From assembly GCA_046351515.1 (NCBI GenBank), contig JAXLYJ010000005.1, positions 120,318-184,317 on the forward strand: a stretch of 64,000 nt of DNA, in the 5' to 3' direction. The position numbers were made by a program, and so were the translations under genes. Positions 12,270 to 28,241 of the stretch are shown here, in pieces. Numbering within the stretch: the stretch's first letter is position 1; each line of letters begins with the position of its first letter. The notes below the pieces were generated by a model. The model was given only the letters and a program-made list of their open reading frames with translations, did no database searches and was not told where the DNA came from. Origin of the DNA: Polyangiales bacterium (GTDB lineage Bacteria; Myxococcota_A; Polyangia; Polyangiales; Ga0077539).

Positions 12270-12295
12270 GGTGAGTCCTCCGTCGATGAGTGGGT

Positions 12296-14203
12296 TTAGC
12301 GGGCGCGGAGCTTGCGCGCGTCGCCGATACGAATCGTGACCTTCTTCACGTCGAAGTACTCGGCGAGAGGAATGGTCCATTTGCGCGACGCGCCGGTGAT
12401 CGTCTTGAAACCCTGCGCGTCGATCGATCCTTGGGCCTCGATCCAGGCCACGAGCTTCTTTTCGAGCTCGAGCATGGACGCCGCGTCCGCGTAGAACTCG
12501 GGCGAAATCTTCACGATGTCCCCGCGCGCCACGAGGCGGTCGAGCGCCGGCGCGAGGGCCTTGGGCTCGACGCGCAGCGACTGCGCGACCTCGTCGACGC
12601 GCGGAGGCATCACGCCCGCGCTGCAAATCGCCTTGCGAACGGGCTCGAGGTGCGGGACGGCGTCGGGGTCCTTCGGCTTCCATCCGGCGCGGGCGTAGAC
12701 GTCTTGGTCGCGGCTCACCTTGCGATCGGCGACGAGCTTGGCGAGCAGGGCGTCCATCAGCGCGTCGTCCCCGAGGGCTTTGAGCGCGCTGCGCGTGAGC
12801 CCGCGCGAGGCGGGGTTGGCAGAGTGCTCGGCGGAGAGCGACTGAAGAATCTTCTGCGTCACCGGCGCCGCTGCGCTCGCGCTCACCCAGCGCTCTCGCG
12901 TGATCTGCACGAGCCCCGCGGTGGCCATCGCCGCCTCGTCGAGCGTCGCTCCGACGCGCGCCGAGAGCTGCTGGGGAGAGAGCCCTTTGAGCCCCGCGGC
13001 GTCGGACTCGGCGCGCAGTCGAGCGTCGCGATCGTCTGCGTTTTCAGCGACGGATTTCGCTCGCGCGAGCGCGGTGTCGCGCTTCTTCACGCGCTCGGCG
13101 ACCGGACGAATCACCACGCCGCCGCCGAGCGTCGAGCCGAAGCCCGCGAGCGAGGGCGGGCCGCGCAGGACGAAGCGCTCGTTGGGTCGAAGCGCGACGG
13201 CGCTCTCCGTGGTGATGCGCGCGATGGCCTTCGAGCCCGGCTCGAGCGACTCGCCTTCGAGCAGCGCGACCGCGCAGAGCGTGTGCGCGGCGCCGACGGC
13301 GAGCTCGAGCTTGCTGCGGCGTCCGAGCTCGTGACGCGTGCTCGCGAGCAGCGAGACCTCGGCGTCGAAGGCGTAGGTGAGCGCGACCTCTCCTTCGCGC
13401 ATGAGCCACGCGCCGCGCGGGACCTCGCCGCTCTCGATGCCGGCGATGTTGACCGCGACGCGCGTCCCCGCCGAGGCCTGTGTCACAGAATCGCCGTGAA
13501 TTTGCAGGGCGCGCACGCGCACCTCGCGCGCTTCGTCGTCGAGTCCCACCGGCGCGACCACGAGCGAGTCGCCCTCGCCAACGGCGCCGGAGACGAGCGT
13601 TCCGGTCACGACCGTGCCGAAGCCCTTGCGAACGAAGACGCGGTCGATCGGCAAGAGCGTCGGGCCGTCCGAGGCGCGCGGCGCGACCGCTGCGCGGGCG
13701 AGCGCTGCGCGAAGCTCGTCGAGTCCGCGGCCGGTGTGCGCGCTCACCGCGACGATCTCCGCGTTCTGCAAGAACGTCCCCGCCACGGTCTCGCGCACCT
13801 CTTCGATCGCGAGCTCGAGCACGTCGTCCGCGGCGAGGTCGGACTTGCTGAGCGCGATCACTCCCGCGCGAACGCCGACCAGCTCTGCCACCGCGAGGTG
13901 CTCTCGGGTCTGCGGCATCACGCCTTCGTTCGCCGCGACGACGAGCATGCAGAGGTCGAGGCCTCCGGCGCCGGCGATCATCGCGCGGATAAACCTCTCG
14001 TGGCCGGGCATGTCGACGATCGCGGCGCGTCGACCGCCGGGCAGCTCGAGGTGCGCGAAACCGAGCTCGATGGTGATTCCGCGGGATTTTTCTTCGGGCA
14101 AACGATCGGTGTCGACGCCGGTGAGCGCCTTCACGAGAGCGGTCTTGCCGTGATCGATGTGTCCTGCGACGCCGATCACGAGGTCCGAGGGACGAGCGGT
14201 CAT
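12296..14203 (-). CDS. selB: selenocysteine-specific translation elongation factor
   Basis: GTPase motifs [16 protein letters not shown] and SKSDL, followed by a long C-terminal winged-helix-like extension. About 635 aa from ATG 14203 (the track ORF begins at GTG 14233). Confidence 0.85.
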
Positions 14204-14224
14204 GTGCGTGTAGAGTATCTGCCC

Positions 14225-15958
14225 ATGGCACACCGATCGACGCAGTTCTGTCTCTGGATGGCTCCGTTGTTGGCGCTCGCGAGCGCCCGATGCTCACCGC
14301 CGCCGCCGTCGCCGGACGCTGAAGCGTCGGTGAGCGACGCGACCAGTGACATGAGCGCGCCGGACGGCGGCGAGCAGGACGGCTCGATGATCGCCGGTGA
14401 CGCTGGCGCAGACGCTTCTCCCGCGTGGCTCGAGCCGTGGGCGCCCGGGCCGCGAGCGCGTCCTCGACAGGGATTTCTCTGGGGAAGCGCGACGGCGGGC
14501 TATCAGATCGAGGGCCAGCTCGACAACACCGACTGGGCCATCTGGGAGTCGATGGGTCGCATCGTGAACAACGATCGGGCCAACGACGGGCCGCGCTCGT
14601 ACGAGCGATGGATGGACGACGTGAACGCGCTGCGCGAGAGCGGACAGACCGCGTATCGCTTCGGGATCGAGTGGGCGAGGCTGTTTCCGACGCGCGCGAG
14701 CTGGGAGGCGTGTCGCAACGCGACGGGCGACATGGCCGCGAAGGTCGCGACGTGCCGGATGCAAGCGAGCGCGACGGGCAAGGCGTACTACCACCAGCTC
14801 ATCGACGCGCTGCGCGCGAGCACGCCGAGGATCGTCCCGATGGTGACGCTCTATCACTGGACGATGCCGGACTACATCGCTGATCCCCGCATGGATTTTC
14901 GCACGCAGGGATGGATGAACATGCGGATGCGATCGGACATGGCGCTGTACGCCGCGGTCGTCGCGGCCGAGTACGGCGAGACGGTCGACTGGTACGTCAC
15001 GCTCAACGAGCCGATGGTGCACGTGCTCGCGGGCTACCTCGACGGGCGGTTTCCGCCTGGAAGAACGCTGGAGATCGACGGCGCGGTCACCGTGCTGACG
15101 AACATGGTCTACGCGCACGCGGCGATGTACGACGCGATCAAGCTGTTCGATCGCACGACCGCCGAGAGCACGGGGCCGATCAGCCCGACGCAGCCGTCGT
15201 ACGTCTCGATCGCGCATCACATTCGACGGATGTACGGCGCGAACCCCGCGAGCACGATGGACGCGCGCGCGGCGACGAAGGCCGACTGGCTCAATCACAA
15301 GCTCTTCTTCGAGGCGATCGTGCGCGGCAACCTCGATGCCAACGGCGACGGAACCGTGAGCGCCACCGAGCCCACCAACGACCCCGCGCTGCGCGGCCGC
15401 GTCGACTACCTCGGGATCAACTACTACGGGATGACCACGATCCGCGCGAACGCAGGGATTCCGCTGGTCGGAGGGCTGCCTGTGAACGAGGAGCTCGAGC
15501 GCGGGCTGCCCAAGACCGACTTCGGCTGGGACATCTATCCACGCGGCTTCGAAGAGGTGCTCGTCAACTACAGCCGCGAGTACATGCTGCCGATCGCGGT
15601 GACCGAGAACGGGATCGCCGACGCGCGCGACGTGAATCGTCCGCGGTTCATGCTCGAGCACTTCGCGGCGATGTTCTCTGCGATGCAGCGAGGAGCGAAC
15701 GTCGTCGGCTACTTCCACTGGTCGACGGTGGACAACTTCGAGTGGGTGGGAGGCTACTGCCCGCAGTTCGGCTTGTACTCGGTCGATCGAACGAACCCGA
15801 TGCGACCGCGAACGGCGCGTCCGAGCGCGATGCTCTATCGCGACGTGATTCGCTCGGGCGAAGTGACGGACGCGCAGCTCACGATGGCCGCGGCGTACCA
15901 GCATCCTTCGCGCTTCTGCCCGAGCACTGTCATGGCCACCGCCGACGCAGGAATGTAG
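14225..15958 (+). CDS. glycoside hydrolase family 1 beta-glucosidase with a signal peptide and low-complexity linker
   Basis: FLWGSATAGYQIEG, the acid/base motif TLNEP and the nucleophile motif VTENG. The N-terminus MAHRSTQFCLWMAPLLALASARC looks like a signal. Only the last 578 codons of track ORF 12290..15958 are real. Confidence 0.85.
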   Translation: MAHRSTQFCLWMAPLLALASARCSPPPPSPDAEASVSDATSDMSAPDGGEQDGSMIAGDAGADASPAWLEPWAPGPRARPRQGFLWGSATAGYQIEGQLDNTDWAIWESMGRIVNNDRANDGPRSYERWMDDVNALRESGQTAYRFGIEWARLFPTRASWEACRNATGDMAAKVATCRMQASATGKAYYHQLIDALRASTPRIVPMVTLYHWTMPDYIADPRMDFRTQGWMNMRMRSDMALYAAVVAAEYGETVDWYVTLNEPMVHVLAGYLDGRFPPGRTLEIDGAVTVLTNMVYAHAAMYDAIKLFDRTTAESTGPISPTQPSYVSIAHHIRRMYGANPASTMDARAATKADWLNHKLFFEAIVRGNLDANGDGTVSATEPTNDPALRGRVDYLGINYYGMTTIRANAGIPLVGGLPVNEELERGLPKTDFGWDIYPRGFEEVLVNYSREYMLPIAVTENGIADARDVNRPRFMLEHFAAMFSAMQRGANVVGYFHWSTVDNFEWVGGYCPQFGLYSVDRTNPMRPRTARPSAMLYRDVIRSGEVTDAQLTMAAAYQHPSRFCPSTVMATADAGM

Positions 15959-18440: not shown

Positions 18441-18545
18441 GATCTCGAACCCCCGGCAGCATACGCGCTTCTGTGCAAAGTATGAAAAACACGCAAGCTT
18501 CGTTGGCGCCGCGGGGGGCGAGCGGTGCTACACCCTCGGGTCTCG

Positions 18546-19250
18546 ATGAGCGATTTCTACGAAGACGAGGTCGAGCTGCGTCGGTTCGACAGCGCGTTCG
18601 ATGCTGAGTTGGCCTTGGAGTTCGTGCGCGAACACGGCGTGCGCGCGAGGCTCAAGGGCTCTGGAACGACGCACATCCTCGATCGGTTCACGACGGTGGT
18701 GGACCTGCGGCTCATGGTTCCTGCCGGTGAGCGCGAGGCGGGGATGGCCGCGCTCGAAGCGATGGAGCTCGATGAAGACTCCGCCGACGAAGCCGCGCAG
18801 AAGCGGCTCGACGACGAGGCTCGCGGCGGAGCAGCCTACCGTGAACGCCGTGCCAACACGCAGGACGACGCGCCTTCTCCCAAGGATTTTCGCTACCGAA
18901 GCGGCGCGGTGGTGGGCGTCGCGTGGTTCGGCGGAGCGCATTTGAACGCCCGGCAGTCCGTGCTCGGCTGGTTCTTGTTCGCCGTCATGTGGACCTTGCT
19001 GCTCGCCGCTGTGACCACCGGAAAGCCCTGGCTCATCGTGACCTTCACGATGCTCTGGATCTACGACATCGCGCACGGAATTCTGGCGGTGGATCTGCAC
19101 AACGCCGGCAAGCGCGTCGAGCCCAAGATCCAGCTGTTGCACGGCCTGGCGGTGCTGCTCGTCGCCTCGCTCGCGTCGATGGCGCTCGTCGCTGTGCGTC
19201 CTCCACGCAGGCCCGCAGAAGACGCGATGGCTCCGGCGCCGGTCGGGTGA
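18546..19250 (+). CDS. hypothetical membrane protein (soluble N-terminal domain plus TM2-like C-terminal helices)
   Basis: ATG at 18546 (MSDFYEDEVELRRFDS..). The C-terminal part GVAWFGGAHLNARQSVLGWFLFAV.. has 3-4 hydrophobic helices. It ends 53 nt before the radical SAM gene on the same strand. Confidence 0.55.
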   Translation: MSDFYEDEVELRRFDSAFDAELALEFVREHGVRARLKGSGTTHILDRFTTVVDLRLMVPAGEREAGMAALEAMELDEDSADEAAQKRLDDEARGGAAYRERRANTQDDAPSPKDFRYRSGAVVGVAWFGGAHLNARQSVLGWFLFAVMWTLLLAAVTTGKPWLIVTFTMLWIYDIAHGILAVDLHNAGKRVEPKIQLLHGLAVLLVASLASMALVAVRPPRRPAEDAMAPAPVG

Positions 19251-19303
19251 TCGCCGCCTGTCGCGGTAGCGCCCGCGCGTAGGGTCTGCGAAGCTTGCGC
19301 CCG

Positions 19304-20407
19304 ATGGCAACAGCACGGCCCAAGCGATATGCGCTCGCGATCGAACTCACGAGCTACTGCAATCAGAAGTGCGGCTACTGCTACAACGACTTTCGCGAGG
19401 ACGGGGGCAAGTCCGTCGGCGCGCTTCCGACGGAGCAATTGCTCGCGGTCGTGGACAAAGCGCTGACCGAGGTCGAGTTCGATCACGTCACGCTCACCGG
19501 CGGAGAGCCCTTCGCGCGCTCGGACATCTTCGAGGTCATGGACCTCGTGAAGAAGCACGGCGTGGGTCTGCAGATCATTTCGAACGGCGGGATGATCACC
19601 GAGGCGATCGCCAAGCGCCTCGCGCCGTACAAGCCGAGCTTCGTGCAGGTCACGCTCGACGGAGCGAGCAAAGAGCAGCACGAAGCGCACGTGGGCGAGG
19701 GGCACTACGACAAGACCCTGCGCGGCATCGCGCTGCTGAAAATGCACGGCGTCACGGTGTGCGGCTGCATCGTGATCTCTCGAAAGAACGCGAAGGACGT
19801 CGGCGAGATCCTCGATCAGTTTCGGCGGCTCGGGATCAAGAGCGTCGCGCTCTCGCGGTTTTCTCCGTCGGGGTACGCCGCGGCCAACGTCGCTGAGCTG
19901 CTCCCGTCTCGCTCGGAGATGATCACCGCGCTCGAGCAGGCCGAGGCGCGCGGCCGAGACAACAAGATGGACCTGCAAGTGACGATGCCGATGCCGCCGT
20001 GCGTGATCGAGCACAAGGACTATCCGCACGTCCGCTTCGGCGGCTGCCCGATCGGGACCGAGATGCAGGAGTTTGCGCTCGGGCCGAAGGGCGAGCTTCG
20101 CAACTGCACGCTGCACACGGACGTGATCGGCGACGGACAGAGCGAGTCGTTCGCCGCGCTCGTCGAGAGCCCCGCGGTGATGCAGTACCGCGACGTGACG
20201 CCAGAGTTCTGCGAGCCGTGCCCGCACAAGCGATCGTGCGTCGGCGGCTGCGGCGCCTCTGGGGTCGCGGTGCTCGGAAAGCAGAACCCGCTCGATCCCT
20301 TCGTCGCGCAGCACGTGGACGACGCGTTTCGCGCGCAGCTCAAAGCGGCGCGGCGGGGCGAATCGCCGGTGATTCCGGCCAATCGTCTGCGGCGCGCCGC
20401 GGTCTGA
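19304..20407 (+). CDS. radical SAM/SPASM-domain maturase (anSME-like architecture, no RRE)
   Basis: CNQKCGYC (CX3CX2C) at residues ~19-26 and a TGGEP SAM-binding motif. C-terminal auxiliary-cluster region: C-X14-G-X4-C followed by CEPCPHKRSCVGGC (CX2CX5CX3C). The track start at 19295 is TTG; ATG 19304 is preferred. Confidence 0.9.
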   Translation: MATARPKRYALAIELTSYCNQKCGYCYNDFREDGGKSVGALPTEQLLAVVDKALTEVEFDHVTLTGGEPFARSDIFEVMDLVKKHGVGLQIISNGGMITEAIAKRLAPYKPSFVQVTLDGASKEQHEAHVGEGHYDKTLRGIALLKMHGVTVCGCIVISRKNAKDVGEILDQFRRLGIKSVALSRFSPSGYAAANVAELLPSRSEMITALEQAEARGRDNKMDLQVTMPMPPCVIEHKDYPHVRFGGCPIGTEMQEFALGPKGELRNCTLHTDVIGDGQSESFAALVESPAVMQYRDVTPEFCEPCPHKRSCVGGCGASGVAVLGKQNPLDPFVAQHVDDAFRAQLKAARRGESPVIPANRLRRAAV

Positions 20408-20450: not shown

Positions 20451-20975
20451 ATGAGCGAAGACGAGAGCAAACGCGAGCCGAGCGACGAGGGCGAGCGCGA
20501 CGAGGACAGCGAGGATCGCTCGATGATCTTCGCGCGACGCAAGATGCTCGTCTCCGCGGCGCTCGCGGGCGTCGCGATGAGCACGGCGGGGTGCGATCAG
20601 CTCAAGCGCGCGATCGGGATCGGGGCCGACCCGCAGCCGTGTCTCTCTCCACCGGAGCCGCCTCCGCAGGTGTGCCTCGCGTATCGGCCGACCGAGCCGC
20701 AGGCGTGTCTGAGCGTCCCCATTCAGCCGCAGGTGTGCCTGTCGCCGCGCGTCGAAGAGCCGCCTCCCGACGCGGGCGGCGCAGCGGTCGATCCGCTCTC
20801 GGGGATGCGCGACCCCAACGCGATGCCGTGCCTCGCCGCGATGGACCCGCGTCGCGACCCGCCGCGACCACGGGTGTGTTTGTCGCGCGTGCCCTCGCGC
20901 CCTCGCGCCTGTCTCGGAGCGACGCAGAGCGACAACATGTTCAAGGACACCAACGAGTCCGACGACGAGTCGTGA
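20451..20975 (+). CDS. Cys-repeat protein with a Tat-like/lipobox signal; putative substrate of the flanking radical SAM enzymes
   Basis: 174 aa. Acidic N-terminus (residues 1-24), then FARRKMLVSAALAGVAMSTAGC (RR, h-region, lipobox Cys48). Seven P-x-x-C-L-[SAG] motifs follow (Cys64, 75, 86, 96, 127, 143, 154), then an acidic tail QSDNMFKDTNESDDES. GAAGGGAG lies 9 nt upstream of ATG 20451. Alternative start ATG 20523 (M25). Confidence 0.7.
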   Translation: MSEDESKREPSDEGERDEDSEDRSMIFARRKMLVSAALAGVAMSTAGCDQLKRAIGIGADPQPCLSPPEPPPQVCLAYRPTEPQACLSVPIQPQVCLSPRVEEPPPDAGGAAVDPLSGMRDPNAMPCLAAMDPRRDPPRPRVCLSRVPSRPRACLGATQSDNMFKDTNESDDES

Positions 20976-21034: not shown

Positions 21035-23281
21035 ATGACCCGTCCCGTGCGTGTGCTGCTCTTGTGGCCAGGAACCGACGGCGCCGCCGCCGGCAACTTC
21101 GGCGTCCCGCAGCTCGTGTTGCTCGCGACCTACGCGCGCTCGAAGACTGGCGCCAAGATCGACATTCGCGACATCGAGACCGAGCGCGCGTTCGGCGCCG
21201 TCTCGCTGCCTGCGCTGCTCGCGGGCGATCACGGCAGCGGCTACGACGTCATCGCGCTCGGAGTGTATTCGAGCTTCGATTACTTGAAGTGCGTCGCGCT
21301 CGCCGAAGTGGCGCGGCAGCTCTACCCCGAAGCGGTGATTGTTGCGGGCGGCTATCACGCGAGCGCTCGACCGGGCGACATCGTGTACGACGGCTCTCCG
21401 TTCGACGTGTGCATCGTGGGCGAGGGCGAGAAGCCCTTGGTGACCGTGATCGAATCGGTCGCGGGCGGCGCGCCGTTGCGTGGAGAAATCCTCGGCCCCG
21501 AGCCGGTCGACGTGCTCGACGATCTTCCGCCGAGCGACTGGAGCTTTCTCGCTCGCTACCGGTCCATCGCGCGCAAGGTCAACTCGCAAGCGCAGGTGTA
21601 CTTCTCGCGCGGCTGCCCCTTCGACTGCGCGTTCTGCATGGAGCGCGCGAAGCGCGAGGTCTCGTGGCGCGCGCTGTCCATCGAGCGCGCGGTGCAAGAG
21701 ATCCGCTCGCTGCACGAGTTTCTCGATCTGCGAACGTGGACCGTCTACATCGCCGACGCGCTGTTCGGGATGAAGGTCTCGTGGCGCAGGCAGTTTCTCG
21801 AAGCGCTCGCGCGCGAGGCGATTCCGGTCGACAAGTTCTGGCTGCTCATCCGCGTCGACCTCATCGACGAGGTGGATCTCTCGCTGTTTCACCAGGCCAA
21901 CTGCGGGCTCGGATTCGGGCTCGAGTCCGGCGACCCTGCGCACCTCGCGACCATTCGCAAAGCCGGCCGCCTCGACGAGTACCTCGATCGCATGCGCAAC
22001 GTGTCCGCGTGGGCGAGGGAGCACCAGGTCCCTTGGGGAGCGAACGTGATCGTCGGGCACCCGGGCGAGACGCCCTCGTCGATCGAGCGCAGCGCCGCGT
22101 ATTTGAGCGAGCTGTTTCTCGACCCGAAGGGCGTGACGGGATTTCTCTCGGTCGATCCGTTTCGGCTGTATCCCGGCTCGCCGATCGACTCCGAGCGCGG
22201 ACAGTGGGAGGCACGCTTCGGCTGCGTGTTTCATCGGCCGGACTGGTGGCACGACGGCGATCAAGAGTTTCTCGCCGAGTGGGTCGATCCCTCGCGCGAG
22301 CTGACGTACCTCGAGCGCGCGCGCCTGCAGCACCAACACTTCGGTCCCATCCTCTCGCGCATCGAGGACAACTTCGTCTACCGCGGAAAAGCCCGCGAGT
22401 ACTTCGTTCGCGCCATCCGCGATCAGGTCCGCCAGGACCGCGCGGGCATGCGCATGCACTACCTCGATCGCTACTACGCGTGGCACCGCTACCTCGGTCG
22501 AAGCAGCAAGGGGGACGCGCATCGCCGCGCGGATCGCCACCTCGCGCAGACCGCGCGCGAGCTGCGAGAGCGGCACCGCGCCTCGCTCTTGGAGTACGCG
22601 TCTCGACCGGGCGCCGAGCCATCGCGCGCCGCCGTCGTCGTGAGCGCGGTGCTCGACGCGCGCCGCGAGCTCTTCGTTCCGCTCGATCGCGTGATCGAGA
22701 GCGTGAAGGACGAGCCCGTCGCGCTCGACGCGAGCGGCGAGAGCACGGTGAGCGCGATGCACGCGTACGCTAGGACCTTCGCGCTCGCGGACATCACCGA
22801 GGGCGATCGTGTCTTGGATCTCGGCTCGGGCACCGGCTACGGCTGCGCTGTCCTCCGATCGCTCGTCGGCGAGGACGGAGCCGTGTGGGGCGTCGAGGTG
22901 GACCCCGCGCTCGCCGCGAAAGCGCAGAAAAACTGCGGCGAATTCGCCAACGTCGCCGTGCGCGCGGGCGACGCGATCGACCCCGCGCACTGGGGCGTCG
23001 AGCCCTCGCAGCTCACCAAAGTGTGCGGCGGATTCGCGCTCGAAGACATCCCCGAGGCGTGGTCGGTCCTGCCCGAGGGCTGCGTGATCGTCGCGCCGAT
23101 CGGCGGGTCGGACGAGCAGCGATTGGTGCGCGCGACCAAGCGTGGGCAGCGGTGGTTGCGCGAGCCGTTCGACGCCGTGGTGTACGTGCGTCGACGAACC
23201 TCGGACGAAGTGCAGCCCGCGGTCGCCGCGGCCACGCGCGTCGAGCAGAGCGCGCGCAAGCACCTGCCGATCGCGACGTGA
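21035..23281 (+). CDS. fusion protein: B12-binding domain, radical SAM core and protein-L-isoaspartate O-methyltransferase-like domain
   Basis: 748 aa from ATG 21035. The N-terminal VRVLLLWPG..VIALGVYSS..VIVAGGYHAS resembles a B12-binding Rossmann domain. CPFDCAFC lies at residues 194-201. The C-terminal ~190 aa (RRELFVP..STVSAMHAYARTFALADITEGDRVLDLGSGTGYGCAVL..VWGVEVDP..VIVAPIG) match the PCMT/PIMT pattern. Confidence 0.85.
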   Translation: MTRPVRVLLLWPGTDGAAAGNFGVPQLVLLATYARSKTGAKIDIRDIETERAFGAVSLPALLAGDHGSGYDVIALGVYSSFDYLKCVALAEVARQLYPEAVIVAGGYHASARPGDIVYDGSPFDVCIVGEGEKPLVTVIESVAGGAPLRGEILGPEPVDVLDDLPPSDWSFLARYRSIARKVNSQAQVYFSRGCPFDCAFCMERAKREVSWRALSIERAVQEIRSLHEFLDLRTWTVYIADALFGMKVSWRRQFLEALAREAIPVDKFWLLIRVDLIDEVDLSLFHQANCGLGFGLESGDPAHLATIRKAGRLDEYLDRMRNVSAWAREHQVPWGANVIVGHPGETPSSIERSAAYLSELFLDPKGVTGFLSVDPFRLYPGSPIDSERGQWEARFGCVFHRPDWWHDGDQEFLAEWVDPSRELTYLERARLQHQHFGPILSRIEDNFVYRGKAREYFVRAIRDQVRQDRAGMRMHYLDRYYAWHRYLGRSSKGDAHRRADRHLAQTARELRERHRASLLEYASRPGAEPSRAAVVVSAVLDARRELFVPLDRVIESVKDEPVALDASGESTVSAMHAYARTFALADITEGDRVLDLGSGTGYGCAVLRSLVGEDGAVWGVEVDPALAAKAQKNCGEFANVAVRAGDAIDPAHWGVEPSQLTKVCGGFALEDIPEAWSVLPEGCVIVAPIGGSDEQRLVRATKRGQRWLREPFDAVVYVRRRTSDEVQPAVAAATRVEQSARKHLPIAT

Positions 23282-23293
23282 AAGGGCGCTGGC

Positions 23294-24751
23294 GTGTCGC
23301 AGGACGAGTTCTCGCTGAGTGCGCTGCTCGATGACGAGACCGATGGCGCGCGCGACGGCCTCGTCTTCGAGGGCGAGCGGCTTCGATGGAGCGAGGTCGC
23401 GACGCGCGCCCTGCGGCTCGGAGCCAAGATCGAGCGCGCCAACGGCGGTCGCGCGCGGCGAGTGGCGCTACGCGCGAGCAATCGACTCGAGACCGCGCTC
23501 GCGCTGTACGCGATGTTCGACCGGGGGATCACCGTCGTTCCGCTGCACCCGCGGCTGACGGACGCCGAGGCCGCGGCGCTCGCCGACGACGCCGAGTGCG
23601 CGCTCCGGCTCGACGACGCCTCGCTCGACGCGCTCATTCGAAGCGACGAAGCGCCGCTCGACCCTCGATGGACACACGAAATCAAGATCGACCCCGAGGC
23701 GCCGCTCGCCGTGCTGTACACCTCGGGCACCACCGGTCGGCCCAAGGGCGCGGTGCTCTCGCGCCGCGCGTTCGTCGCCAGCGCCCGCGCGAGCGAGGTG
23801 AACCTGCCGTGGAGCGCGCGGGACCGTTGGCTCTTGTGCCTCCCGCTCTGCCACGTCGGCGGCCTCTCGGTGCTCACGCGGTGCTTGTTCGCGAGGCAAG
23901 GCGTGGTGCTGCAGCGAAAGTTCGACGAGCGCGCGGTGCTCGACGCGATCGAGCGCGAGGGGGTGACGATCGCGAGCTTCGTTCCGACGATGATGCATCG
24001 GCTGCTCGAGGCGGACTCGCGCGGCGCGCTCGCGGCGTTGCGCGCGGCGCTCTTGGGCGGGGCCGCGACGTCGACCGCGCTGCTGCGCGCGTGCGCCGAG
24101 CGCTCGATCCACGCGCGAACGACGTACGGGCTCACCGAAGCGTGCTCGCAAGTGAGCACGCAGGGCGAGCGCGATTGGAGCACGGTCGAGCTCGGCAGCG
24201 GCGCACCGCTCGCGGCGACAGAGCTCTGCGCGCTGCGCGAAGACGGGACTCGGTGCGAGCACGACGAGGTCGGCGCGCTCGTCCTGCGCGGACCGACGCT
24301 CTTCTCGGGCTATCTGCACCACGAGCCTCGGGCGCGCGAGAGCTGGTTTTCGACCGGCGATTTCGGGTTCTTCGACGAGCGAGGACGCCTGCACGTCGTG
24401 GCGCGCAGGACCGACCTGATCGTGACGGGCGGCGAAAACGTCTACCCCCTCGAGGTCGAGCGCGCGCTCGACGGGATCGAAGGCGTGCGCGCCTCACTCG
24501 TGTTCGGCGTCGATGATCCGCGCTGGGGGCAGGTCGTGGCGTGCGCCCTGGTGATCGATGAGCGATTCTGTCCCGACCGTTTCGCGGTGAAATGCGCGGA
24601 GATGCTCGCGCCCCACAAGCGACCGCGGCTGTTCGCGCCGTGCGAGGCGCTGCCGCTGACCGCGGCGAACAAGCCCGATCGGCGCGCGGCGCGAGAGCGG
24701 TTTTCCTCGCAGCTCGAGCCGGTCCGCTATCGCGCATCCCCGAACCGCTGA
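23294..24751 (+). CDS. AMP-dependent synthetase/ligase (o-succinylbenzoate-CoA ligase MenE-like)
   Basis: YTSGTTGRPKGAV, TTYGLTEACSQV, FSTGDFG and GGENVYPLEVE. About 485 aa. GTG start 12 nt after the preceding stop. Confidence 0.8.
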   Translation: MSQDEFSLSALLDDETDGARDGLVFEGERLRWSEVATRALRLGAKIERANGGRARRVALRASNRLETALALYAMFDRGITVVPLHPRLTDAEAAALADDAECALRLDDASLDALIRSDEAPLDPRWTHEIKIDPEAPLAVLYTSGTTGRPKGAVLSRRAFVASARASEVNLPWSARDRWLLCLPLCHVGGLSVLTRCLFARQGVVLQRKFDERAVLDAIEREGVTIASFVPTMMHRLLEADSRGALAALRAALLGGAATSTALLRACAERSIHARTTYGLTEACSQVSTQGERDWSTVELGSGAPLAATELCALREDGTRCEHDEVGALVLRGPTLFSGYLHHEPRARESWFSTGDFGFFDERGRLHVVARRTDLIVTGGENVYPLEVERALDGIEGVRASLVFGVDDPRWGQVVACALVIDERFCPDRFAVKCAEMLAPHKRPRLFAPCEALPLTAANKPDRRAARERFSSQLEPVRYRASPNR

Positions 24752-24945: not shown

Positions 24946-25149
24946 GCTTCGTCGCTCGATTTGCAGGGCGAATCGTCGGCGTTGCTTTCACTCTGGCACG
25001 CGCGGGCGAAGCGTCAAGTCGAGAGGGAAGCATTCTGCTCTCTCGATGGGTTACAACGGTGCGCGCGTTCGGTCGTCGTCCGCTGCGAGGGCAGCGATGA
25101 TGGGCGAGCGCGGATCGCAGCGCCTCTCAGACTCTCAAGGAATCTCCTC

Positions 25150-26253
25150 GTGGATCGTCGTCGTATCGCCATCACTCTCGCTCGCGTGCTCGCGCTCGTC
25201 GGGCTCGTGGTCTCCGCGGCGCTCATCATCGAGTACGCGATGCCCGAGCCCACGCTCTGCGGTCCCGGCGGCGGGTGCACCGCCGTCCGCGCGTGCTGGG
25301 AGCAGCGCGTGAAGTGGTTTTCTCTTCCGTGGTTCGGGCTCGTCTCGTTCGGCGCCGCGCTGAGCGCGCTGCTGCTCGTGCCCAAAGACAAGGCGAGCAA
25401 GCTCTTGCCTGCGCTGGGGGCGCTCTCTGCGCTCGGCGGCGCGACGCTGATCGCGCTGCAGCTCGGGATGTGCCACTCGTGGTGCAAGTTCTGTATGGTG
25501 ACGGATTCGAGCGCGATTTTGCTGGGCGCGGCGCTCTTGTTCGGCCGCGACGCGTACGAGCCCGCCTCGCCGACGCAGCGGTGGCTCTTCGGCGGCGGCG
25601 CGGTGCTGACCGCGTGCGTGGCGATGTTGAGCGCGCCCCCTGCGAGCACGGGCGGCGGCGGGACGGGCGGCGATTCGTCGCGCGGACCGCGCGCTCAGTA
25701 CGTCGCGGTCTTGCCGGGGCCGGTCGCGCGCGAGCAGCGCGACGGCGTGGTGACCATCGTCGAGTTCGCTGACTTCGAGTGTCCGTTTTGTCGCAGGCAA
25801 CACGCGGTGCTCTCGTCGGTGATCGAGCGCTATCACGGACGCGTGCGGCTCGTGCGCAAGCAGCTCCCGTTGACGGGGATTCACCCGCACGCCGAAGACG
25901 CGGCGAAGGCCGCGCTGTGCGCAGAGGAGCTCGGTCGCGGCGAAGCGATGGCCGATCGACTCTTTCGCGCGGAGGCAGAGCAGCTCACGGCCGACGGGAC
26001 GACGGCGATCGCGCGCGAGCTCGGCCTGGACGAACGCGCGTTTCGCGAGTGCGTCGCCAACGATCGAACGCGCAGTCACATCGCGAGCGACCGCAACGCC
26101 GCGCACGAGTGCGGCGTGCAGGGGCTGCCGACGATGTTCATCGGGCACGAGCGGTTCGACGGCCTCGTGGACGAAGAGGCGCTTCGCGAGAGCATCGAGC
26201 ACGCGCTGCACCCCGATGCAGGCGCGGGCGTGAGCAGCGCGGACGGGGGCTGA
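25150..26253 (+). CDS. VKOR-domain membrane protein fused to a DsbA-like thioredoxin domain
   Basis: GTG at 25150 is preceded by AAGGAA. The VKOR cysteines CGPGGGC and CKFC sit within four or five TM helices. The C-terminal periplasmic domain has FECPFC plus LPTMFIG. Confidence 0.85.
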   Translation: MDRRRIAITLARVLALVGLVVSAALIIEYAMPEPTLCGPGGGCTAVRACWEQRVKWFSLPWFGLVSFGAALSALLLVPKDKASKLLPALGALSALGGATLIALQLGMCHSWCKFCMVTDSSAILLGAALLFGRDAYEPASPTQRWLFGGGAVLTACVAMLSAPPASTGGGGTGGDSSRGPRAQYVAVLPGPVAREQRDGVVTIVEFADFECPFCRRQHAVLSSVIERYHGRVRLVRKQLPLTGIHPHAEDAAKAALCAEELGRGEAMADRLFRAEAEQLTADGTTAIARELGLDERAFRECVANDRTRSHIASDRNAAHECGVQGLPTMFIGHERFDGLVDEEALRESIEHALHPDAGAGVSSADGG

Positions 26254-26298: not shown

Positions 26299-27792
26299 TC
26301 AGCGGTCGGTTGCAGCGAGGGTTCGATCGGATCGCGATCGGCGGCGCGCCACGAGCGCGGCGGCTGCGGCGAGGGTGAGGGCCGCGAGGGGAGCGCGGGA
26401 GCGACCGCGAGCGGGCGTGCTGCACGCGCAGCCGTCGCCGGTGATGAACTGCGATGTGGCTGCGTCGCGAGCGGCGTCGCGGGCGCTGTCGGGCGCGCTC
26501 GCGTCGCTCGCATCGACGACGCCCGAGTCCATCACGACCGGCCGCGCGACGCCCCGGCCGCGCGCGGTGACGTACACCGTCGGGGTGTCGGGGTCCGACG
26601 TGACGAGCGGAACGCGGGTTTCGAACGCGCCCTCGCTGCTCGGCGCAAAGCGCATCTCGACCGCGCGCATCGCTCGAACGGGCACGGCGATGCGCGGCTC
26701 GACCCAGGCGAAGGGCGCGCTGTCGATGTCCGTCGATCGCAGCACGTCGAGCGTGGCGCCGCCGCGATTGTCGATGGTGACCGAGCGCGTCGCGCTCTCG
26801 CCGACGAAGACGTCGCCGAACTCGATGACCGACGGGAGCGGCGCGATGTCGGGCAGCTCGAAGCGCACGCGCTGCGGGTCGAAGAGCCACGGCCGCGCAG
26901 GGGTGTTGATGGGCACGGGAACATCGACGATGGGGATGTCCCAGCGACGGCCGAGCAACGAGACGTAGAGCGACGGCGTGACGGTGATCGTGACGCTCTG
27001 ATCGACCAGGCCTTCGAGCCGCGGAGCGAGCTCGACGAACGGGCCGCCTTCGAAGGGGAGGGTGATGCGCTCGACGCTCTCGGTGATGGCGTCGGGGGCG
27101 GGCGCGAAGGAGATGCGCGTCGAGCGGTAGCCGGTCTCGAGCGAGGCCGAGGCGGCGAAGCTGAGCCCGCCGGAGATTCCTGGGATGGGGATGAGCGAGT
27201 CGGTGAGCGAGACGTCGGCGATGCGCTGACGCATGGTGCTGCCGCGGACGCTCGTGCGCGCCCAGCCCCAAGGGTCGAAGTTGCCGCGCGCGGTCGAGCG
27301 AAAGTCCACCTGCGGAACGAAGGGGATGTTTCCTTCCCAATCGTAGGTCGTCGCGCCGATCACGAGGTGCAGTCGGACGCTCGAGCGAAAGACGATCCCG
27401 TAGTCCGACTCGATCGAGGCGCTCTGCGCCGGTCCTGGCGGCGCGGCGACGGACATCGCGCGAGGCCACGAAGCAGCGAGCGATCCTCCCGCGCGAATCT
27501 CCGTGTGCCCGACGAACGCCGCTCGAAGCCGCACTTGCACGGGCGATCCGGCGGGGATCCACGACGTGTCGTAGTCGAACTCGACCGGCAGCCCCTCGCG
27601 CTTGACGAACTGAATCGGCGCGACCTGACAGCCGAGCGCGCTCGCGACGCACGCTCTCGCAGGGATCGCCGCGTCTGCTCCCGCGTCGGCTCCCGCGTCC
27701 TGCGCAGCCGCGCTCTGCGCGACGCACAGAGTGCCCACCAGCGTGAGCGCGGTGATCGCGCCTCGCAGCGAAGAAAGCGACGCAACGTGCAT
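26299..27792 (-). CDS. secreted protein with a MYXO-CTERM-type C-terminal sorting tail
   Basis: Signal peptide MHVASLSSLRGAITALTLVGTLCVAQSAAAQ. The C-terminus GDGCACSTPARGRSRAPLAALTLAAAAALVARRRS has the layout Gly/Cys motif, TM helix, basic tail. Confidence 0.7.
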   Translation of the reverse strand: MHVASLSSLRGAITALTLVGTLCVAQSAAAQDAGADAGADAAIPARACVASALGCQVAPIQFVKREGLPVEFDYDTSWIPAGSPVQVRLRAAFVGHTEIRAGGSLAASWPRAMSVAAPPGPAQSASIESDYGIVFRSSVRLHLVIGATTYDWEGNIPFVPQVDFRSTARGNFDPWGWARTSVRGSTMRQRIADVSLTDSLIPIPGISGGLSFAASASLETGYRSTRISFAPAPDAITESVERITLPFEGGPFVELAPRLEGLVDQSVTITVTPSLYVSLLGRRWDIPIVDVPVPINTPARPWLFDPQRVRFELPDIAPLPSVIEFGDVFVGESATRSVTIDNRGGATLDVLRSTDIDSAPFAWVEPRIAVPVRAMRAVEMRFAPSSEGAFETRVPLVTSDPDTPTVYVTARGRGVARPVVMDSGVVDASDASAPDSARDAARDAATSQFITGDGCACSTPARGRSRAPLAALTLAAAAALVARRRSRSDRTLAATDR

Positions 27793-27830
27793 GGGCTCGA
27801 CGCTACCAGAAGAGCCGCGCGCTTCGCCGA

Positions 27831-28241
27831 CTACAGCTCTGCCGCGCGCTCGTCGAACCACGCGAGCACCGCGGACAGGTCGCGATGCTTGTCGAACACG
27901 GGCCCGAGGTGCGCGAGCTGTCGCGCCCGCTCGTCGCTCTTCTCAGCGGTGAAGAACGCGATTTTCACCGACGAAATCGCCGCTCGAAGCCGCTCGGCCA
28001 CCGCGGGCCCGTCGACCGCTCCGCCCAGGTCGACGTCGAGCAGGACCGCGTGCAGGGGAGGATCCGCGCCCATTCGGCCAACAAACAAGTCGAGGTCGCT
28101 GAAGCACTCGACCAAGACCCCTCGCAACCCCGCTTGTTTGCGTACCTGACGAAGCGCGACGACGCTGTCATCGAGGTACGCCAATCCGCTGCGAATCTGC
28201 AGTTCGGAGGGCGTGATGGTCGAGTCGTCGGCAGCGGACAT
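27831..28241 (-). CDS. single-domain response regulator (receiver only)
   Basis: YLDDS..VLLDVDL..FFTAE..FDK matches the spacing of REC acidic-pocket, phospho-acceptor, Thr and Lys positions. The start is uncertain (ATG 28241 vs 28355). Confidence 0.6.
   Translation of the reverse strand: MSAADDSTITPSELQIRSGLAYLDDSVVALRQVRKQAGLRGVLVECFSDLDLFVGRMGADPPLHAVLLDVDLGGAVDGPAVAERLRAAISSVKIAFFTAEKSDERARQLAHLGPVFDKHRDLSAVLAWFDERAAEL

Follow-up and report, generated by a model that had tools for sequence, protein, structure and literature searches.

The DNA considered here is a stretch of 64,000 nucleotides from a Polyangiales bacterium (assembly GCA_046351515.1, contig JAXLYJ010000005.1, positions 120,318 to 184,317 of the forward strand). 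We call this whole stretch the window, and coordinates given without a locus number are positions in it. Our subject is a cassette of three genes on its forward strand. The first (19295-20407) encodes a radical S-adenosylmethionine (SAM) enzyme of 370 residues that also belongs to the SPASM type. The second (20451-20975) encodes a small protein of 174 residues, the putative substrate. The third (21035-23281) encodes a fusion enzyme of 748 residues in which a B12-binding domain, a radical-SAM core, a helical extension and a methyltransferase domain like that of protein L-isoaspartate methyltransferase (PIMT) follow one another. We will argue that these genes probably form one system, which matures proteins built on a repeated Cys-Leu motif.

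The fusion enzyme

The open reading frame (ORF) of the fusion runs over its whole length without interruption, and its ATG at 21035 matches the N-termini of homologues. An in-frame extension upstream to the GTG at 20591 would overlap the gene of the small protein and has the third-codon-position GC of non-coding DNA (0.60). We take the fusion and the 174-residue ORF to be genuine coding frames because their third-position GC is 0.87 and 0.86, against 0.60 and 0.71 in the competing frames. The value for the fusion is the same as in the neighbouring genes, and the frames that compete with it lie between 0.60 and 0.71. The window has 69% G+C and contains very long spurious ORFs on both strands; one ORF of 1222 residues (12290-15958, +) is a real GH1 glycosidase over its last 585 residues only.

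Pfam finds three domains in the fusion, each above its gathering score. The Rossmann-like B12-binding domain occupies residues 27-138 (21113-21448; PF02310, E = 2.5e-8, 34.2 bits against 32.1) and has the invariant motifs GGYHxSA.P and GE.E. The radical-SAM core follows at residues 189-355 (21599-22099; PF04055, E = 3.2e-13), and the PIMT/PCMT-fold methyltransferase domain at residues 534-718 (22634-23188; PF01135, E = 3.1e-22, 79.8 bits against 20.3, over profile positions 20-203 of 210). Between these two lies a conserved stretch, residues 356-533 (22100-22633), which comprises the helical C-terminal extension of the radical-SAM module and a linker. It has many invariant columns (W404 W405 D409 ... 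Y480 W483), and the structural model places helices at residues 425-541. The protein ends about 30 residues past the PCMT domain. The motif CPFDCAFC is found at residues 194-201 (21614-21637), and its cysteines C194, C198 and C201 are invariant among clade members. In the last domain the stretch TVSAMHAYA...VLDLGSGTGYG covers 22745-22843, the PIMT signature TVSAMHAYA being encoded at 22745-22771 and SAM motif I, VLDLGSGTGYG, at 22811-22843.

An AlphaFold model, for which 46 homologues were used, reached a predicted local distance difference test score (pLDDT) of 93.2 and a predicted template modelling score (pTM) of 0.89. Foldseek matches the N-terminal two thirds of this model to TsrM, TokK, AprD4, CysS, OxsB and MgmA (E 1e-15 to 1e-18). 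It matches the last domain to the PIMT 2yxe, with a target-normalised template modelling (TM) score of 0.84, a root-mean-square deviation of 2.6 A and 30% identity. Sequence comparison gives the same picture. The N-terminal 470 residues are nearest to MgmA, the methyl-coenzyme M reductase (MCR) glutamine methylase, and to AprD4 and TokK, the nearest sequence in the PDB being MgmA 9ccb (E 6.7e-10). For the C-terminal 278 residues, PIMTs of archaea and bacteria give an end-to-end alignment (2yxe, E 2.5e-16).

The residues that matter in a PIMT are present. D595, G597, G599, G601, E621, D646 and S573 are invariant in the window's clade down to about 59% identity, and they are retained or conservatively replaced down to 42%. 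As motifs, TVS573AMHAY, VLDLGSGTGYG, E621 and GDA646 are invariant or near-invariant in the clade. S573 is the Ser of the pre-motif T-[IV]-S-A-x-H, which in PIMT structures holds the substrate carboxylate. Because S573, motif I, E621 and D646 are all conserved, the domain appears to have what a working SAM-dependent carboxyl methyltransferase requires.

Placing the fusion in a known family is more difficult. All of its 45 NCBIfam matches fall below cut-off, the best being TIGR04013 (62.6 bits against 251), and the partial matches include MJ_1487, BchE, HpnR, ApyD, MJ_0865 and rSAM_ocin_1. Since every one of them is far under its cut-off, the fusion is, as judged from these models, a family of its own among the class B (cobalamin-dependent) radical-SAM enzymes. 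The models for repair PIMTs do not claim it either (TIGR00080 84.5 bits against 159, NF010549 72.7 against 282, NF001453 67.2 against 188), nor do those for PIMTs that serve peptides synthesized by the ribosome and modified after translation (RiPPs; TIGR04188 45 bits against 380, TIGR04364 56.8 against 320). By these scores its PCMT domain is not an ordinary repair PIMT, and it falls outside the curated RiPP-type PIMT relatives.

The fusion is widespread in one part of the bacterial tree. A search of 5.8 billion proteins returned at least 120 clusters at 59-88% identity, all with PF02310, PF04055 and PF01135 and all labelled only 'radical SAM protein' or 'protein-L-isoaspartate O-methyltransferase'. 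The named sources are all myxobacterial: Polyangiales, Polyangiaceae, Nannocystaceae, Enhygromyxa or 'Myxococcales'. With one genome scanned per species, the fusion is present in at least 23 GTDB species representatives (our loci L003-L025), all labelled myxobacteria or deltaproteobacteria, among them Labilithrix, Sandaracinaceae and the cultured Paraliomyxa miuraensis (L006). A profile-free search of 1.84 billion representatives gave about 30 fusion clusters at the 50% level; in the same search ordinary, unfused B12 radical-SAM enzymes begin at about 33% identity to the fusion. On this sequence record the fusion is a conserved family of polyangial and nannocystal myxobacteria, not a single event.

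A preliminary description of this locus had proposed the three-domain fusion, with CPFDCAFC at residues 194-201 and a PIMT-like domain at the C-terminus, and had been aware of no description of the architecture. Pfam, AlphaFold and Foldseek agree on the domains, and translation puts the cysteine motif at the same residues. The PIMT-like assignment, for which profile support had been set as a test, passes with the PF01135 score given above and is borne out by the match to 2yxe and the intact SAM-binding residues. Full-text literature searches returned no description of the fusion or of the Cys-Leu-repeat proteins discussed below, and Pfam and NCBIfam offer only generic domains for the fusion and its SPASM partner. 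The description had also allowed that the architecture might be a common annotated family with an unrelated substrate. Common it is, but annotated with a known substrate it is not. One paper on pamtides mentions 249 two-gene 'rSAM + PAMT' clusters without precursors (PMC10787088). This may be an allusion to the present system, although its text supplements contain no myxobacterial names.

The SPASM partner

The radical-SAM enzyme encoded upstream carries CNQKCGYC near its N-terminus and CEPCPHKRSCVGGC near its C-terminus; the C-terminal cysteines follow the pattern CX2CX5CX3C, and C306, C309, C315 and C319 are invariant. Wherever the upstream side of the fusion can be seen, in 23 of 23 loci, a homologue is the adjoining gene, and eight further loci (within L083-L092) have it there as well. 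The partner is as conserved as the fusion, with at least 120 clusters listed at 61-91% identity.

The chemistry of this enzyme is harder to read. Its NCBIfam matches, all below cut-off, are to ScmE, MftC, PqqE, WgkB and StsB, and Pfam did not report PF13186 for it. By sequence the nearest solved structure is PqqE (6c8v), with a full-length profile alignment at E 6e-23. The fold search with its model (pLDDT 79) puts anSME (4k39) marginally nearest, at TM 0.66 and E 1.8e-15, followed by SuiB, SkfB and PqqE, all at about 0.65. The model has pLDDT below 50 at residues 300-306 and 313-338, which is much of the SPASM Cys region. As far as such a model goes, the ranking is too flat for assigning a chemistry. 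The enzyme has no N-terminal PqqD-like RiPP recognition element (RRE), because its radical-SAM core begins at residue 16 and leaves no room for one. Nor did inspection of the loci turn up a PqqD-like gene standing by itself.

The candidate substrate and its family

The 174-residue protein is encoded between the two enzymes, 59 bp ahead of the fusion. Its ORF has a third-position GC of 0.863 and a GGGAG resembling a Shine-Dalgarno sequence 9 nt upstream. The protein begins MSEDES...DRSMIFARRKMLVSAALAGVAMSTAGC and goes on to seven P-x-x-C-L motifs. The acidic extension ahead of the n-region is unusually long, and it leads into a signal-peptide-like segment, MIFARRKMLVSAALAGVAMSTAGC (20523-20594), with twin Arg, a hydrophobic core and the lipobox Cys48. 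The lipobox, LAGVAMSTAGC, satisfies the PROSITE-type core pattern, and RRKML has the RR-x-hydrophobic-hydrophobic spacing that is canonical for twin-arginine translocation (Tat). The repeat region (20631-20915) reads PQPCL, PQVCL, PQACL, PQVCL, AMPCL, PRVCL, PRACL, with its cysteines at residues 64, 75, 86, 96, 127, 143 and 154. Seven CL pairs in the post-signal part were reached by none of 100,000 shuffles, the maximum being 5. Orthologues, with a lowest identity of 52%, include P0320 (91%), P0332 (65%) and a gene at L087 7596-7967. They retain the Cys-Leu motifs and vary in repeat number, linkers and acidic C-terminal tail. P0320, 91% identical over the aligned residues, is without two of the seven repeats, so repeat number appears to change fast, through deletions or duplications, without loss of the motif in the repeats that remain.

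Small genes of this kind accompany the enzymes elsewhere. Cys-Leu-repeat genes were found within 10 kb in 17 of the 22 well-flanked loci, and the 30 precursors analysed below were taken from these. The gap between the SPASM and fusion genes ranges from 0 to 2 kb across loci and, where present, holds one to five tandem small genes. In loci without a gap a homologous small gene is usually found just downstream on the other strand. A profile search extended the family to at least 370 proteins of 89-216 residues, all 'hypothetical' and without a Pfam domain; no NCBIfam or Pfam model recognises them, and all named members are myxobacterial. Starting from the precursors instead of the enzymes leads back to the same place: two of three precursors chosen for their long contigs adjoin the SPASM and fusion genes.

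The members share a plan. A short acidic extension with an Asp is followed by (I/V)-L-A-R-R-x-x-F, a hydrophobic stretch, and then a Cys that has Gly, Ala or Ser before it; the PROSITE-type lipobox core is present in 22 of the 30. The body is proline-rich (21% Pro) and compositionally simple, with two to seven repeats of P-x-[PVA]-C-L set 9 to 85 residues apart. In the 30 precursors every one of the 126 post-signal Cys is followed by Leu. A logo of 119 repeats reads P-x-[P/V/A]-C-L-x-[P/V/I]-[A/P], with Pro at -3 in 110. Across these repeats no acidic or amide residue is conserved; Asp stands at -6 of the Cys in 46 (39%). Four or five tandem paralogous precursor genes are found at L025 4034-5895, L017 7162-10004 and L085 4278-6793. 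The paralogues differ in their linkers, which are Asp/Thr/Gly-rich or Pro/Lys/Glu-rich, and this suggests diversification of the unmodified parts.

Because the small genes co-localise with the enzymes in those 17 loci, and because the reverse look-up returns to the enzymes, the product of the gene at 20451 is very probably the substrate. The preliminary description had placed the fusion directly after this gene and named its product as a putative substrate; the first point is confirmed and the second supported. What it had overlooked is the SPASM partner, the putative signal peptide and lipobox of the substrate, and the wide conservation of the fusion.

Divergent relatives

Even where the fusion is only 36-41% identical (P0133, P0137), the order of small genes, SPASM gene and fusion is retained. 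The small genes of these divergent loci encode lipobox-bearing proteins with G-P-C-L or A-C-L repeats, but their recognition elements are different. At the N-terminus they have a plain Lys-containing lipoprotein signal, MNLRKLPPSMLLALGLAC. At the C-terminus they have instead a motif that is conserved and looks helical, (A)L(D/E)R(V)L(A/D)RG(T)LPxDVAxRLR, which may be a recognition element of the follower type. In L083 (5950-6846) and L085 (4278-6793) the G-P-C-L repeats are separated by linkers of the (DTGTGSGS)n type, and the C-terminus of the precursors reads ALDRVLARGTLPxDVAxRLR with an invariant Asp. Since the Cys-Leu repeats and the lipobox both survive a complete rearrangement of the recognition elements, we see here the strongest argument, on comparative grounds, that these two features would be the functional core of the precursors.

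The PCMT-fold domain of the divergent clade was detected by Pfam in four of the five members searched (P0133, P0135, P0137, P0140, P0141), at E 1e-10 to 4e-13 in three and 3e-5 in P0135, with no match in P0141.

Relation to known systems

The closest known enzymes to the fusion are the class B radical-SAM methylases MgmA/QCMT (9ccb), ApyD, PoyB/PoyC and TmoD, with their relatives TsrM, TokK and CysS. It shares with them the N-terminal B12 domain, the CxxxCxxC core and the helical C-terminal extension. Unlike them, it carries a PIMT-fold domain, is always paired with a SPASM enzyme, and has as its candidate substrate a Cys-Leu motif in a protein with a putative signal peptide. Its last domain agrees with PIMT/PCMT in having the full-length fold, T-[VI]-S-A-x-H, motif I, the acidic residue after beta-2 and GDA. 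The RiPP-associated PIMT relatives (PAMTs) compared were LanS, TceM, ThfM and the imiditide and pamtide enzymes. Unlike PIMTs and PAMTs, the fusion falls below the equivalog cut-offs (repair, FxLD, graspetide) and is joined to a radical-SAM enzyme. The extra domain that PAMTs are described as having at their C-terminus (PMC10787088) would not fit in it. PAMTs differ further in that the precursors of the fusion have no conserved Asp and its PIMT domain is degenerate in the sister clade.

The SPASM partner resembles anSME (AtsB) in its length of about 370 residues, its lack of an RRE and its SPASM cluster motif. anSME matures secreted sulfatases at a Cys or Ser, and it acts in the cytoplasm on a Cys in a short Pro-containing motif of a signal-peptide-bearing protein. 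An anSME-type chemistry was nonetheless rejected: the precursor motif is C-L-x-[PVI]-[AP] and not C/S-x-P/A-x-R, there is no conserved Arg at +4, and there is no sulfatase domain. TvgB (TVGG) and TigE (TIGSVS) are SPASM enzymes that act iteratively on short precursor repeats (PMC10878394). The chemistry of these cyclopropyl synthases was rejected too, as the partner lacks the GYW motif that defines them (the criterion of PMC10878394) and the repeat conserves Cys-Leu, not Val/Ile. Bufferins are Cys-rich RiPPs with Sec/lipoprotein signal peptides that are modified in the cytoplasm by MNIO enzymes (PMC12452194), whereas the enzymes of the Cys-Leu cassette are radical-SAM enzymes. From the TvgA/TigB and bufferin systems alike the cassette differs in motif and taxon and in its extra B12 radical-SAM/PIMT fusion.

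One further parallel concerns the order of reactions. TmoS, a SAM methyltransferase, and then TmoD, a B12 radical-SAM enzyme, act on one peptide-bound Cys-derived thiol (PMC9303977). The logic of TmoS/TmoD and CysS, polar methylation of a heteroatom and then extension of that methyl by a B12 radical-SAM enzyme, might, with low probability, be that of the fusion as well. The difference is that theirs are separate proteins with a methyltransferase that is not a PIMT. Measured by NCBIfam cut-offs, the anSME motif, GYW and a conserved Asp, the cassette falls outside every named subfamily tested. At the superfamily level its parts do belong, by sequence and fold, to the class B radical-SAM enzymes, the SPASM maturases and the PCMT fold.

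Proposed function

We believe the cassette is a maturation system for secreted, probably lipid-anchored proteins with Cys-Leu repeats, and we regard this as reasonably probable. The precursors would be made in the cytoplasm with an acidic extension, a lipoprotein-type signal peptide and a Pro-rich, probably disordered body. There, ahead of export, each P-x-P-C-L would be worked on iteratively by the SPASM enzyme together with the fusion's B12/radical-SAM module. The SPASM enzyme might carry out an oxidation or cross-link at Cys initiated by H-abstraction, and the B12 module a C-methylation by way of cobalamin or some related radical alkylation. The fused PIMT-like domain would, in the window's clade, add a SAM-derived methyl to a carboxylate of the substrate. 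The modified protein would then be exported and probably lipid-anchored. The sequences themselves show the domains, the conserved motifs, the strict linkage of the genes, the repeat and the features of the signal peptide; we infer Cys-Leu as the modified site, the order of the steps and every chemical detail, and the identity of the substrate likewise.

The two halves of the fusion might act sequentially on one site and produce an undescribed modification of Cys or Cys-Leu, at many sites of the exported lipoproteins. We think this rather unlikely, though it deserves to be spelled out. By analogy with TmoS/TmoD and CysS, the polar methyltransferase might place a methyl on a heteroatom, which the radical enzyme would then extend. 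Alternatively, the anSME-like partner might oxidise Cys to a formylglycine- or aminomalonate-type residue, whose alpha-carboxylate would mimic isoaspartate and be esterified by the PIMT-like domain.

Several observations count against a maturation system as we describe it. Five of the 22 well-flanked loci lack a precursor within 10 kb. The same holds within 8 kb for L086, at 81% identity the nearest relative whose context is known, and the precursor in L091 is not beside enzyme genes. The lipobox pattern fails in eight of the 30 precursors. Tat export we do not claim, since most members have RR-x-x-F, which is not canonical. Cobalamin binding by the fusion is predicted from fold and motifs only; AprD4 has the same fold as the class B enzymes and is not known to use cobalamin. 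AprD4 is a diol dehydratase and not a methylase. There is no conserved carboxylate in or near the motif in the 119 repeats, which leaves the target of the PIMT-like domain unexplained: it could be an Asp of leader or linker, a carboxylate generated by radical chemistry or a nucleophile other than a carboxyl group, or the domain could have a mainly structural role. The divergent PCMT domains have lost the Gly-rich SAM motif and T-x-S-A-x-H, and precursors are still encoded next to them. P0134 and P0125 have no PCMT domain; a domain with the sequence HVLAH stands in its place. The support is also computational throughout, drawn from sequences, models and analogies.

Because the divergent clade keeps Cys-Leu precursors beside a degenerate PCMT domain, methyl transfer by this domain would not be essential to the conserved Cys-Leu chemistry, and the two radical-SAM modules are probably what carries the core of that chemistry. 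Within the window's clade, strict conservation of the residues speaks for real methyl transfer.

Weighing the alternatives

One rival takes the PIMT-like domain at its word. It would esterify Asp or isoAsp of the 174-residue protein to give aspartimide or isoaspartate, and the B12 module would C-methylate the same peptide, with the imiditide, pamtide, lassimiditide and graspimiditide pathways as models. The PF01135 match and the conserved signature Ser and SAM motifs fit this, as do the RiPP-associated PIMT homologues that methylate Asp (PMC10787088, PMC13001092). Asp accounts for about 10% of the residues after the signal peptide, with an enrichment at -6 of the Cys (the 46 of 119 repeats noted above), and many precursors contain the imide-prone D-[TS]-G. 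The TIGR04188 and TIGR04364 scores are far below cut-off, though, and in the sister clade these precursors go with a PCMT domain that has degenerated. The motif fixes neither an Asp nor an Asn at any position, and linkers of the Nannocystaceae type are rich in Lys, Glu and Pro with almost no Asp near the motifs. The preliminary description had built its case on Asp-Pro, Asp-Asn and Asn-Glu sites in the 174-residue protein. This part of it does not survive comparison: no Asp, Asn or Glu is conserved, and the named sites vary among orthologues. Asp-Pro, moreover, accounts for five of the nine post-signal Asp of that protein, and it is unable to cyclise to a succinimide because the Pro nitrogen has no proton. 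We consider this explanation improbable. A still lower probability attaches to the idea that the PCMT fold is mainly a dock or scaffold for substrate or leader, with methyl transfer secondary or absent. That idea has in its favour the divergent clade just discussed, which keeps the fold and the adjacent precursors after losing SAM motif and signature, and the 'HVLAH' domain that takes the PCMT position in P0134 and P0125. It also draws on the SPASM partner, which has no RRE, so that substrate recognition must lie elsewhere, and on the pTM, which suggests a fixed arrangement of the domains. What it hardly explains, if SAM binding and catalysis are given up, is the invariance of D595, G597, G599, G601, E621, D646 and S573.

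The enzyme pair might act on something other than a protein, a lipid, a cofactor or an envelope component, with the lipoprotein genes as clients, carriers or merely co-regulated neighbours. Weak NCBIfam similarity to BchE, a ladderane lipid enzyme, HpnR and HpnJ points that way, some loci have no precursor nearby, and an enzyme identity of about 60% across families is more typical of housekeeping functions. Against this, the SPASM partner resembles PqqE, anSME, SuiB and SkfB over its full length, the PIMT fold acts on polypeptides, and an exactly repeated, strongly constrained Cys-Leu in proteins that are otherwise hypervariable and of low complexity is a hallmark of modification sites. The linkage also persists across clades whose precursors have different leaders. 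We hold a non-peptide substrate to be about as improbable as the scaffold. Finally, a B12 radical-SAM gene and a repair PIMT gene could have been read as one through an error of assembly or gene calling. Such errors are generally frequent in metagenome-assembled genomes, and nothing else speaks for one here. The ORF is uninterrupted with uniform third-position GC and a conserved linker, the pTM is high across domains, TIGR00080 scores the last domain at 84.5 bits, well under the repair-PIMT cut-off of 159, and the same architecture in at least 120 clusters from many sources refutes the idea; we give an artefact practically no chance.

Accessory and neighbouring genes

Two other genes recur in related loci. 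The domain that replaces the PCMT domain in P0134 and P0125 also exists as a free-standing 'HVLAH' protein of 288 residues; in 14 loci its gene lies downstream of the fusion in convergent orientation. Proteins of this kind have 257-291 residues, the motif near the N-terminus and no family match (L002 12227-13093, -; L001 14246-15019, -; L085 10229-10654, +). P0124 carries such a protein as a fused extension after its PCMT-like domain (36% identity with the protein of L002, E 1e-17). P0137 and P0140 appear to have the same fusion by visual comparison of the sequences only, and BLASTP of the L002 protein against P0137 gave no significant match. The fusion in P0124, with those seen by eye, provides a Rosetta-stone link to the cassette. 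The 'HVLAH' domain of the divergent clade contains HEEVH or HEEIH (HExxH), which suggests metallopeptidase ancestry. The other gene encodes a Lactamase_B_3 protein (metallo-hydrolase fold) of 426-454 residues, divergent from the SPASM gene in Nannocystaceae-type and divergent loci; all four placed examples are on the reverse strand (L001 7506-8867, L002 7516-8880, L083 3700-4980, L092 5591-6925). The 64-kb window has no homologue of either the 288-residue protein or the Lactamase_B_3 protein, even at E = 10.

The window's own subclade has neighbours of a different kind. The fusion is followed after 12 bp by a MenE-like acyl-CoA ligase (23294-24751, +; TIGR01923 menE, 292 bits with the cut-off at 330). 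Such a ligase is found 0-12 bp after the fusion in the window, L086 and L087, and none of the other loci has one. In this subclade only, a gene for a membrane protein of 241 residues (18525-19250, +) lies upstream of the SPASM gene. L086 and L087 have genes of 233-235 residues without a Pfam match at this position, which correspond to it by position and size only. Pfam and NCBIfam find nothing in the 241-residue protein or in the 288-residue accessory protein. After the ligase comes a VKOR-DsbA fusion protein (24961-26253), a quinone-dependent periplasmic disulfide oxidase. For the family as a whole, neither the ligase nor VKOR-DsbA was accepted as a component: the first adjoins the cassette in the window's subclade only, the second in the window and L086 only. 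That the ligase and the 241-residue protein belong to the system at all is doubtful. On the reverse strand, at 26299-27861, a protein of 520 residues combines a domain of the ASH/HYDIN Ig-like or 'choice-of-anchor D' type with a C-terminal tail of the form GDGCACS...hydrophobic...RRRSR and gives a weak MYXO-CTERM match (16.5 bits against 20).

Significance

The maturation of ribosomal peptides and proteins by radical-SAM enzymes is already a known kind of biology. What is new here is the covalent joining of a B12 radical-SAM enzyme to a PIMT-fold methyltransferase, the obligatory SPASM partner without a recognition domain, and the candidate substrates, which bear putative signal peptides, are Pro-rich and probably lipid-anchored, and have a repeated Cys-Leu as their sole conserved feature. 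The three genes are a defined target in the search for new cysteine or leucine chemistry, and they offer a natural experiment in what a PIMT fold does without a conserved Asp. They would also be a further case, after the bufferins, of cytoplasmic modification before export. If the two domains of the fusion do turn out to be coupled, that would be a new enzyme logic and would define a new class of ribosomally made, lipid-anchored modified proteins. The spread of the cassette across this branch of the myxobacteria, to which every hit with an organism name belongs, with enzymes about 60% identical between families, argues for a role in the physiology of the cell envelope more than for a strain-specific antibiotic.

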